A DNA stretch of 36,911 nt from a virus (taxonomy: Duplodnaviria; Heunggongvirae; Uroviricota; Caudoviricetes). The notes beneath the pieces were generated by a model that worked only from the letters and a program-made list of their open reading frames with translations, ran no database searches and was not told where the DNA came from. Positions within the stretch are counted from its first letter, which is position 1. Every line of letters begins with the position of its first letter. The stretch lies in the IMG/VR virus record IMGVR_UViG_2531839667_000007. One strand, given 5' to 3'. The translations under genes were made by a program, and so were the position numbers. Positions 16,138 to 18,520 of this stretch are shown one piece after another.

Positions 16138-16344
16138 ATGGAAAAAATCACAACGGGTGTGTCATACACCACGTCAGCGGTGGGGACGGGATACTGGTTA
16201 CTGCAGCTGCTGGACAAAGTCTCTCCGTCCCAGTGGGTGGCGATAGGTGTGCTGGGGAGTCTGCTGTTTGGCCTGCTGACGTATCTGACTAACCTGTATT
16301 TCAAAATCAGAGAGGACCGTCGTAAGGTGGCGCGGGGAGAGTAG
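16138..16344 (+). CDS. S: holin, phage 21 S-like class II pinholin (68 aa)
   Basis: [33 protein letters not shown]...[20 protein letters not shown] resembles S21 pinholin as recalled; GGAGA SD. Confidence 0.8.
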
Positions 16345-16599
16345 TCGATGAATAAACAATACGAACTGGTTGTAAAATGAATATTTCTAACTGAAAAAAC
16401 GTTCCATGAGGTGAGAAAAGGTCACAGGCAATCAATAACAGGACGTGATGAAAGACCCTTGCATTTGTGCGCTTTCTCTTTAGATAGCAGCAGATACTGA
16501 AAATCTGAGTTGTCGGGGAGTCAGGGATACAGCTGTGCAAGAGTTGGTCATTGTGATTCCATTGAAATCCTGTATGCCATGAAGGGCAGGATTTTATGG

Positions 16600-16914
16600 C
16601 TACCTGAGCTTTGGTGATAGTAAGTTGAAAATTCGCATTTTTTGCTGACATGCGTAACGAGAATCCCATAAGCAGGGAGGACTTAATTCTTCATTAACCC
16701 ATGCGTTGATATTATGTTTCAGCCGTTGAAGCATCAGCGGTGTTAATGTTGTGGTAATAATATCCAGCGTTTTATGTGAGATCTTACCGTAAGGGTCTGC
16801 AAGAATGCTGCTTGTTGCTTCGTTATTATCTGCCATCAGAAGAAGTAACTCTGATTTAACGTTTTCTGTCATTAGTTGTAAAAATCTTCTGCGCAAACTT
16901 TCTTTACTGTTCAT
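16600..16914 (-). CDS. hypothetical ORF antisense to the lysis operon, between holin and endolysin
   Basis: Track ORF (104 aa) in an AT-rich insert; no convincing SD at any candidate start; may be non-coding. Confidence 0.25.
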   Translation of the reverse strand: MNSKESLRRRFLQLMTENVKSELLLLMADNNEATSSILADPYGKISHKTLDIITTTLTPLMLQRLKHNINAWVNEELSPPCLWDSRYACQQKMRIFNLLSPKLR

Positions 16915-17031
16915 TTATATGGCTTCATTTGTTGTAATCTGCTGCGTCTCAAGGGATATGTTTATGAGAGCGACCATGAGTGTTGGATTATATACCTAAC
17001 ATATCAAGGGATTAGAAATCGATAAATCCCC

Positions 17032-17565
17032 ATGAACGAAAAAATAAAATACGGCCTGTCGGCTGCCGTTCTGGCGCTGATTGGTGCAGGTGCTTCTGCG
17101 CCTGAAATCCTCGACCAGTTTCTGGATGAAAAGGAAGGTAACCACACCATGGCATACCGTGATGGTGCGGGGATCTGGACCATCTGCCGTGGTGCCATTC
17201 TGGTGGATGGTAAGCCTGTTATTCCTGGCATGAAGCTGTCAAAGGAAAAATGCGACCGGGTTAATGCCATCGAACGTGACAAGGCGCTGGCATGGGTGGA
17301 GAAAAACATCAAAGTGCCGCTGACCGAACCCCAGAAAGCGGGGATCGCGTCATTCTGTCCGTACAACATTGGCCCCGGTAAGTGCTTCCCGTCGACGTTT
17401 TATAAACGAATTAATGCAGGCGATCGAAAAGGTGCCTGTGAGGCGATTCGCTGGTGGATTAAGGACGGTGGCAGAGACTGCCGTATTCGTTCAAACAACT
17501 GTTACGGTCAGGTATCCCGTCGTGACCAGGAGAGCGCGCTGGCGTGCTGGGGTATCGACAGATAA
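17032..17565 (+). CDS. R: SAR endolysin (T4-lysozyme-like, phage 21 R-type)
   Basis: 177 aa; Gly/Ala-rich hydrophobic N-terminus GLSAAVLALIGAGASAP; E-x8-D-x5-T catalytic spacing in EGNHTMAYRDGAGIWT. Confidence 0.85.
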   Translation: MNEKIKYGLSAAVLALIGAGASAPEILDQFLDEKEGNHTMAYRDGAGIWTICRGAILVDGKPVIPGMKLSKEKCDRVNAIERDKALAWVEKNIKVPLTEPQKAGIASFCPYNIGPGKCFPSTFYKRINAGDRKGACEAIRWWIKDGGRDCRIRSNNCYGQVSRRDQESALACWGIDR

Positions 17566-17655
17566 GCAGAATATTTTGCTGAAAAATAAGGCATGGCCAC
17601 GCGGGCGGATAACACGAAATCCTGCGAACTGGCGAAACGTAAGTGAATAAAAGTA

Positions 17656-17696
17656 AAAACCCCGTTTGTTGGCACCAAGCGGGGTTTTGTGTTTCT
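17656..17696 (+). terminator. terminator-like hairpin between endolysin and Rz
   Basis: ACCCCGTTTG / CAAGCGGGGT stem with one mismatch, then TTTTGTGTTT; A-rich upstream. Confidence 0.4.
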
Positions 17697-17721
17697 GACC
17701 TTGAGTAAGGCAAGGGAGAAC

Positions 17722-17904
17722 ATGGCGAAGTATAAACGAATTCTGTTGAGGTTGACCATGAAAAACGGCCTTGAACTGAAAGCGCCTGTAACTGATGACA
17801 TCAGCAGAGCACTGGCTTTTGCCATTAAGTGGGTGGCGGTCGGTGTTGCTGTGTCCCCGATGCTGTATGGGCTGGCAAAACTGGTCATTGCGTTGAAATC
17901 GTGA
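17722..17904 (+). CDS. small predicted membrane protein (60 aa, [11 protein letters not shown]...)
   Basis: Internal ATG of track ORF 17689..17904, AAGGGAGA SD; hydrophobic C-terminal half. Confidence 0.4.
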
Positions 17905-17918
17905 AGGGAGGATTAAGC

Positions 17919-18050
17919 ATGTCAGACAAACTCATAACGCTGGCGAAGATCCTCTGTGTAATTGTCGGCATTTCATTTTCACTAATGCTGGTTGCTCTTT
18001 TTCTTTCCATGGCCTGGATGATGTTGTCTTCGTCGGGGTTGCTGGGGTGA
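17919..18050 (+). CDS. small hydrophobic peptide (43 aa, [43 protein letters not shown])
   Basis: Internal ATG of track ORF 17829..18050, GAAGGGAGG SD at 7 nt; single predicted TM helix. Confidence 0.35.
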
Positions 18051-18061
18051 ACATAAACCGA

Positions 18062-18520
18062 ATGCTTTCCGCGTTTATCGTTATTCTGCTGGTGGCCTGT
18101 GGTGCGCTGTGGATGGCAACAGACCATTACCGTGATAACGCGATTACCTACAAAGCGCAGCGCGATAACAAAGCCAGTGAACTGAAGCTGGCGAACGCAA
18201 CCATTACTGATATGCAGGTGCGCCAGCGCGATGTTGCTGCGCTCGATGCAAAATACTCGAGGGAATTAGCCGATGCGAGAGCTGAAAATGAAACTCTTCG
18301 CGCTGACGTTGCCGCTGGTCGTAAGCGCCTGCGGATCAACGCCACCTGTCCAGGCTCCGTGCGTGAAGCCCCCACCACCTCCGGCGTGGATAATGCAACC
18401 GGCCCCCGACTGGCAGACACCGCTGAACGGGATTATTTCATCCTCAGAGAACGGTTGATGACAATGCAGAAGCAGGTGGGAGGGGCGCAGGAATATATCC
18501 GCACTCAGTGTATTAACTAG
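18062..18520 (+). CDS. Rz: Rz i-spanin (alternative GTG start 18047)
   Basis: N-terminal TM then [32 protein letters not shown]... closely matching lambda Rz. Confidence 0.85.
18288..18458 (+). CDS. Rz1: Rz1 o-spanin lipoprotein, embedded in the +1 frame of Rz
   Basis: [17 protein letters not shown] has lipobox LVVSAC; proline-rich PPPPPAW; wholly inside Rz. Confidence 0.75.

Follow-up and report, generated by a model that had tools for sequence, protein, structure and literature searches.

The pinholin gene and the endolysin gene of a caudoviral prophage (IMG/VR record IMGVR_UViG_2531839667_000007, Caudoviricetes; the whole stretch analysed, 36,911 nucleotides, is called the window) are separated by a gap at 16345-17031, and this gap appears to derive by deletion from a conserved accessory module found in lambdoid lysis cassettes, and not to be a foreign insert. 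The gene that survives intact in it, orf104, would then be a moron-like prophage gene that runs against the lysis genes. The probability of this reading is put at about 0.6, a figure that blends a high one for how the gap is built and for orf104 being a coding gene, both of which we consider very probably correct, with a lower one for the expression of orf104 and its link to the neighbouring domain X. The gap is composed of a stub of ydfR, the decayed 3' third of X, the intact orf104 and the intergenic region between orf104 and the endolysin gene R. With their borders these parts are:

16138-16344, plus strand: class II (phage 21 type) holin/pinholin gene S, the left border (Pfam PF04971, E 1.3e-32; phrog_9876/phrog_20 holin)
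16348-16380, plus strand: 5' remnant of ydfR (domain of unknown function DUF1327), ATG and nine codons (MNKQYELVVK), then TGA
about 16384-16599, plus strand: decayed relic of the 3' part of X (C-terminal domain of long YdfR, phrog_1085 positions 118-296), with several in-frame stops, non-coding
16600-16914, minus strand: orf104, an intact 104-codon gene of family phrog_1853, encoding a predicted soluble, basic, five-helix protein
16915-17031, no strand assigned: divergent intergenic region of orf104 and R, 117 bp, with the orf104 5' untranslated region and its presumed promoter
17032-17565, plus strand: endolysin gene R, the right border (Pfam PF00959, E 1.1e-23; phrog_7 endolysin, E 1.5e-61)

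Comparison with related phages shows that the ancestral order was S, a long ydfR on the late strand (the DUF1327 domain plus the approximately 185-amino-acid domain X, either fused or following), orf104 on the opposite strand and tail-to-tail with X, and finally R. The deletion in the window took ydfR from codon 11 onwards together with about two thirds of X, and left orf104 and its upstream region intact.

The initial annotation described an AT-rich segment of about 690 bp with an antisense open reading frame (ORF) between the pinholin and the SAR (signal-arrest-release) endolysin. This description is accurate, as the spacing from the end of the pinholin gene at 16344 to the start of the endolysin gene at 17032 is 687 bp and the GC (guanine plus cytosine) content of the gap is 0.392, compared with 0.546 in S, 0.532 in R and 0.516 in the whole window. 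The premise that holin and endolysin genes are normally adjacent does not apply to this phage group, where the slot usually holds ydfR. DNA searches place ydfR (DUF1327, PF07041, E 5e-46) between S and R and on the same strand in phage YYZ-2008, in H-19B-like Shiga toxin 1 (Stx1) phages, in Sakai Sp17 and in the Qin prophage of K-12. The variants seen are S-ydfR-R, S-ydfR/X-orf104-R, S-ydfR/X-R and S-orf104-R, and an insert between two adjacent genes is thus the wrong description of a slot that normally carries ydfR, or long ydfR with orf104, and from which the window has lost material. Since R in YYZ-2008 has its own start, about 50 nt from ydfR, the loss of ydfR and X should not uncouple the translation of R. 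In the window R would likewise use its own start, independent of the lost ydfR frame, and the late mRNA would contain approximately 650 nt of untranslated RNA between S and R.

The two ends of the deletion are visible in alignments. The ATG of the ydfR stub at 16348 lies 3 nt past the stop of S, exactly as in relatives with an intact ydfR, and the stub can be aligned to the ydfR products of YYZ-2008 (MKKKYELVVKG...) and K-12 Qin (MTQDYELVVKG...). Similarity to phages of the ydfR type ends at 16380-16383 and restarts at 16994, at a TAA aligned with the ydfR stop and the R leader; the TAA at 16997-16999, which resembles the ydfR stop, lies inside the orf104-R intergenic region. Homology to the relatives that carry orf104 continues unbroken across orf104 and R at about 81%, and in nearly all of them the spacer between these two genes measures 116-128 bp.

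The sequence between the stub and orf104 was identified with a profile hidden Markov model (HMM) built from 109 X proteins. It matches approximately 16421-16552 in the plus frame, across in-frame stops, with 13.8 bits, a score reached by none of 1994 shuffled sequences (shuffle maximum 5.9). The relic translation, which reads VTGNQ, stop, QDVMKDPCICALSL, stop, IAADTENLSCRGVRDTAVQELVI, aligns to ...GRCMGYLQVAAEIEALASGADKDAVVREALL of X, and the match falls in the best-conserved region of the domain (GRCMGYLQVAAEIEA...VREALL). On visual reading, the collinear remainder of the relic seems to keep traces of the C-terminal PPFK...YLKG motif. No DNA match to 16384-16592 (209 bp) was found outside the clade in which orf104 stands alone between S and R. 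The suggestion of a decayed insertion was therefore partly right: decayed coding sequence, namely the 5' end of ydfR and the X relic, makes up the 5' third of the gap, but it is not an insert.

The 104-codon ORF (minus strand, 16600-16914) had been called the sole sizeable ORF of the segment. Two more exist, one of 120 codons on the minus strand (16307-16669) and one of 64 codons on the plus strand (16805-16999), neither of which has a Pfam match. Both were rejected as genes by comparison with the copy of the region in strain M18 (94% identical), in which nearly every substituted site is non-synonymous for the 120-codon ORF and a stop interrupts the 64-codon ORF.

In diverged relatives, X is a late-strand gene of 184-222 amino acids that lies tail-to-tail with the orf104 homologue, often with 3' ends that overlap by 21-33 nt. 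In the family phrog_1085, positions 1-112 correspond to YdfR and positions 118-296 to X, and YdfR-X fusions account for many database proteins of 268-333 amino acids that are named "YdfR family protein". The full module of S, long YdfR (with X fused or following), antisense orf104 and R is present in loci L004-L006 and L009-L013 and in Shiga toxin 2 (Stx2) phage 86 (gp04-gp07). Compared with a phage that has ydfR only, L013 has the module as an 857-bp segment whose insertion point is about 9 nt short of the ydfR stop. In a census that took in IMG/VR prophages and others, orf104 is antisense to the late operon in every one of the 90 loci. In about 30 of them X is convergent to orf104, and these include nearly all alleles of 80% identity or less, with a short contig as the one exception. 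About 55 loci have the solo order S-orf104-R; all are 96-100% identical to the window and form a single clade. Distant homologues keep the orf104-X pair in other surroundings, upstream of the holin in L023, beside a PF05106 holin in L020 and L021 and beside a PF16080 holin in L019.

X has no match below E 0.1 among PDB sequences, and its AlphaFold2 model is unusable with a predicted local distance difference test score (pLDDT) of 43.8. PADLOC searches with X and with the YdfR-X fusion gave no matches, and no defence or toxin-antitoxin model of Pfam or NCBIfam was hit. As a side observation, the intact YdfR-X ORFs of 268-300 codons in L013 (1715-2530) and L014 (1715-2620) are labelled by the Prokaryotic Genome Annotation Pipeline (PGAP) as pseudogenes, "YdfR family protein, incomplete, missing C-terminus", apparently since the C-terminal X domain has no model.

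Several lines of evidence identify orf104 as a protein-coding gene. It matches phrog_1853, a family of unknown function, over residues 1-102 with an E value of 3.5e-47, and its distant homologues in L023, L020 and L019 match the same profile. The initial annotation had proposed a homology search of the 104-amino-acid product and had named a lack of homologues and expression as evidence against its reading; homologues were found, down to 21% identity. Against homologues of 48-79% identity the ratio of non-synonymous to synonymous substitution rates (dN/dS) is 0.13-0.20, with synonymous change saturated, and the family alignment has nine invariant columns across 21-78% identity. In the M18 copy, differences from the window occur at 9 of 315 sites in orf104 (three amino acid changes) and at 31 of 333 sites in the flanks (Fisher p = 0.0009), so that the flanks have diverged three times as fast as orf104; by part, the differences amount to 2.9% of sites in orf104, 8.8% in the relic and 10.3% in the intergenic region. 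Because divergence in orf104 is far below that of the relic and the intergenic region in this comparison, the gene has remained constrained also after its partner X was lost. As annotated, orf104 is open in the great majority of more than 600 genomes.

The start of the gene deserves comment because RefSeq WP_000138558.1 gives only 90 amino acids. The longer reading of 104 codons is supported by three observations: the first 20 codons are also constrained, with dN/dS of 0.02-0.12 where measurable; L013, the most diverged E. coli allele, has Ile at the position of the start Met of the 90-amino-acid model; and relatives have the Shine-Dalgarno sequence GAGG or AGGA 7-9 nt upstream of the ATG of the long form. 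The earlier remark that the ORF has no convincing Shine-Dalgarno sequence is fair for the allele in the window, where this position reads GAAG, but not for the relatives at the same start. A further side observation is that in L008 (a contig of GCA_946059415.1) an orf104 homologue with 71% identity lies with X and a partial R in a remnant ridden with insertion sequences (IS), including IS66 and IS110 transposases; the small gene remains open even amid this heavy degradation.

The AlphaFold2 model of the orf104 product, made from a six-sequence alignment, is a five-helix bundle (pLDDT 84.7, predicted template modelling score 0.74). The protein has an isoelectric point of 9.3 and no transmembrane or hydrophobic segment (maximum Kyte-Doolittle value over 19 residues 0.66). 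No match was obtained in Pfam (E 0.1 or better), NCBIfam, PADLOC or a profile search of PDB sequences, and a Foldseek search of the model against BFVD gave nothing at E < 1. The family is tiny: when 1.84 billion representative proteins were searched with a profile, 20 members and no link to a named family emerged. There is no profile match between orf104 and DUF1327 (PF07041). Literature searches found no account of orf104, and a study of YdfR and RNase E was the only relevant paper among the results.

Of 5426 complete E. coli genomes, 626 contain the gap sequence, and in 622 of these the identity is at least 99%. It is carried by O157:H7 strains, such as EDL933, and by strains of O103, O111 and O145, and some carriers have two or three copies. 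A search of 50,697 deposited phage genomes gave no DNA match to the gap. Diverged homologues of the orf104 protein are encoded by phage 86 and two phages carrying Stx2a.

How orf104 might work can be outlined only tentatively, and moron-style expression together with a link to X is a proposal to which we give somewhat less than even odds. Its active product would be the protein, a soluble bundle of five short helices in a small chain. The gene would form a transcription unit of its own, starting in the 117-bp region common with R and opposed to the Q-dependent late transcript, and its expression would be independent of late transcription in the manner of morons, like that of bor in phage lambda. 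A putative promoter in this region is suggested by a -10 hexamer only, TATAAT without a mismatch (minus strand, 16992-16987), and the -35 is poor. The constant pairing with X in diverged lineages hints that orf104 may work with or against long YdfR, and a constraint that outlasts X hints that it may also be active by itself, or in trans against X from co-resident prophages.

A number of observations weigh against the reading proposed here. The TATAAT hexamer upstream of orf104 is not kept in all lineages and a consensus promoter scan of the region found no full sigma-70 site. A scan for an intrinsic terminator downstream of orf104 on the minus strand found none, and because of this the orf104 transcript may run antisense into the X relic and S. 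With GAAG at the Shine-Dalgarno position, expression in the window may be low, and rare frameshift alleles of orf104 exist (P0001, P0013). What suggests a functional link between orf104 and X is their synteny. Pairwise distances of orf104 correlate moderately and about equally with those of X (r 0.45) and R (r 0.39) in a Mantel-type comparison, and X is found without orf104 in L014. The prophage itself is defective and collinear with L018, a degraded Qin-like prophage that carries NleH and NleF; in L018, the closest annotated relative, the virion structural genes are largely missing. Just upstream of S the window contains an IS3-family element (14457-15792), whose orfA (15333-15761) and orfB (14494-15375) are on the minus strand. 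This element is absent from L018, which is otherwise 99% identical, and for this reason it is regarded as having entered the late operon recently, between nanS-p/DUF826 remnants and S.

Some of these points would be expected if the whole gap, orf104 included, were a non-functional remnant in which the ORF stays open only through the youth of the clade. X is destroyed, the Shine-Dalgarno sequence is weakened to GAAG, the prophage is defective, both frameshifted and truncated orf104 alleles exist, and nearly all copies are at least 99% identical, so there has been little time to decay. We nevertheless regard neutral junk as unlikely. Relative to M18 the divergence of orf104 is one third of that of the flanks and mostly synonymous, the adjacent relic has gained stops over the same period, and an uninterrupted ORF is annotated in the great majority of the genomes. 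The possibility raised initially that an antisense RNA controls lysis timing concerns the transcript and treats the ORF as secondary, although a dual role is conceivable: a minus-strand transcript would pair with the late S-R mRNA or collide with late transcription and thereby tune the S:R ratio, the timing of lysis or the basal level of R in lysogens. The invariably opposite orientation to the late operon (90 of 90 loci), the overlap of X and orf104 3' ends in relatives and the lack of a terminator found between the orf104 stop and S, which would let the transcript enter S, all fit such a regulator. The conservation, however, is of another kind. Nucleotide identity across lineages is only 48-80%, the start codon and Shine-Dalgarno sequence of orf104 are conserved, and low dN/dS with saturated synonymous change places the constraint at the protein level, so an antisense RNA is not needed to explain why orf104 is conserved. 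Rfam gave no match in the gap and only a sub-threshold rimP-leader outside it, and the folding of 16345-16600 is not unusual on either strand (z -1.78 plus, -0.03 minus). An RNA regulator as the primary function is accordingly judged decidedly unlikely.

X and orf104 could also be a two-gene toxin-antitoxin or anti-phage defence cassette of which the window keeps the orphan antidote or immunity part. They form a compact module in an accessory slot of prophages, are always together in diverged lineages, and the orphan orf104 is kept under constraint; in addition, X-like DNA occurs elsewhere in some genomes with a solo orf104, full-length in 06_3044 and as short fragments only in two others. This is very unlikely in our judgement, as the genes are convergent and form no operon, PADLOC recognises neither orf104, X nor the fusion, and a classic pair would not tolerate both X without orf104 (L014) and orf104 without X (the clade of the window). 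Moreover, an X that is often fused to YdfR within the late operon would be made only late in infection. A deletion derivative with a moron-like orf104 thus remains the preferred reading. A more far-reaching proposal has, in our view, a poor chance of being right: orf104 and X might be an unrecognised pair of regulator and counter-regulator in lambdoid lysis cassettes, where X, carried on the RNase E-binding YdfR, would act late (for example on RNA turnover or the timing of lysis) and would be neutralised by orf104, made in the lysogen from the other strand. In more than 600 genomes of Shiga toxin-producing and other E. coli, the orf104 that stands alone would then be an orphan antidote, active in trans against X of co-resident or superinfecting lambdoid phages.

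Lambdoid phages can carry morons opposite the late operon, a concept of Hendrix and colleagues, for example bor adjoining Rz in phage lambda. In likeness to these, orf104 is a small opposite-strand gene within the late or lysis region, its GC content of 0.384 is well below that of S and R, it is present or absent among otherwise syntenic phages, and it presumably has its own promoter. The moron option of the initial annotation thus covers the antisense ORF, a genuine and selectively constrained protein gene in a moron-like orientation, and only that part of the segment. The gene orf104 differs from classic morons in that a promoter and terminator pair could not be demonstrated by scanning and in that it is paired with the late-strand X in all diverged lineages while classic morons stand alone. 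Its product is soluble, helical and without a signal peptide, unlike Bor, which is a lipoprotein.

The ydfR gene between essQ and rrrQ of K-12 Qin, and in Stx1 phages, occupies the same slot between class II holin and endolysin as the gap. The window keeps the first ten ydfR codons and the TAA resembling the ydfR stop with the sequence downstream of it. The difference is that ydfR is intact and co-oriented with the lysis genes in K-12 Qin and the Stx1 phages, and a stub in the window. YdfR has been reported to bind the N-terminal domain of RNase E and to co-purify with RNA (PMC13232886). The complete module is best illustrated by the Stx2-converting phage 86 (NC_008464), with S as gp04, a 268-amino-acid YdfR-X as gp05, an antisense gene of 104 amino acids as gp06, which is about 53% identical to orf104, and R as gp07. 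There YdfR-X is intact, whereas the window has the stub and the relic.

In strain Ecol_542 (L015, 2025-2297) the place of orf104, antisense and immediately upstream of R, is taken by another small gene. This gene of family phrog_2411 encodes about 89 amino acids and resembles orf104 in size, position, orientation and divergence from R; it differs in having no X as a partner and in its overlap with the 3' end of a short ydfR that is intact. A relationship between the two was rejected (hhalign probability 0.4%), and they are separate families. Because the phrog_2411 gene sits where orf104 does, at least two unrelated small genes have settled in this spot.

The flanking genes were characterised from their products and leaders. 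The S protein starts with MEKITTG... and is labelled as a class II holin family protein by RefSeq in locus L001, which is 99.3% identical. The N-terminus of R, LSAAVLALIGAGASA, consists of small and hydrophobic residues and is compatible with a SAR domain. An inverted repeat, GGGATT-N11-AATCCC, at 17008-17030 ends 1 nt 5' of the ATG of R. Similar inverted repeats are present in most relatives, phages with only ydfR included. Between the hairpin and the ATG, other lineages have 11 nt more, TGATAAATATC, a unit that represents one copy of a GATAAAT direct repeat. The clade of the window lacks this unit, and its absence could influence the initiation of R translation. R and Rz (18047-18520) are also apart, by about 480 bp (17566-18046). 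This second gap contains a strong terminator-like hairpin at 17656-17688 (13-bp stem and T run); it also has small ORFs, which in relatives are annotated as hypothetical by RefSeq. The anti-repressor gene ant fills the slot between R and Rz in YYZ-2008 and Stx2 phage 86.

The finding is real but ordinary in kind: a hypothetical prophage gene that is already catalogued lies beside a pseudogene relic, in a slot whose variability was known. What is new is the identification of the X relic, the support for the 104-codon start and the conserved convergent orf104-X pair in lysis cassettes. A previously unannotated pseudogene relic is thereby identified, a hypothetical protein that is widespread receives a corrected likely start, at 104 instead of 90 amino acids, and intact YdfR-X fusions are seen to be mislabelled as truncated by PGAP. 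The S-R interval of phage 21-type cassettes emerges as a structured variable slot that can hold ydfR, long ydfR or an antisense gene from at least two unrelated families, and a conserved, uncharacterised gene pair sits inside the lysis operon of Shiga toxin phages and their relatives. The release of Shiga toxin is generally understood to need phage-mediated lysis. On this understanding, a modulator of late expression or lysis at this locus, a role that is hypothetical, would have some medical interest if true.
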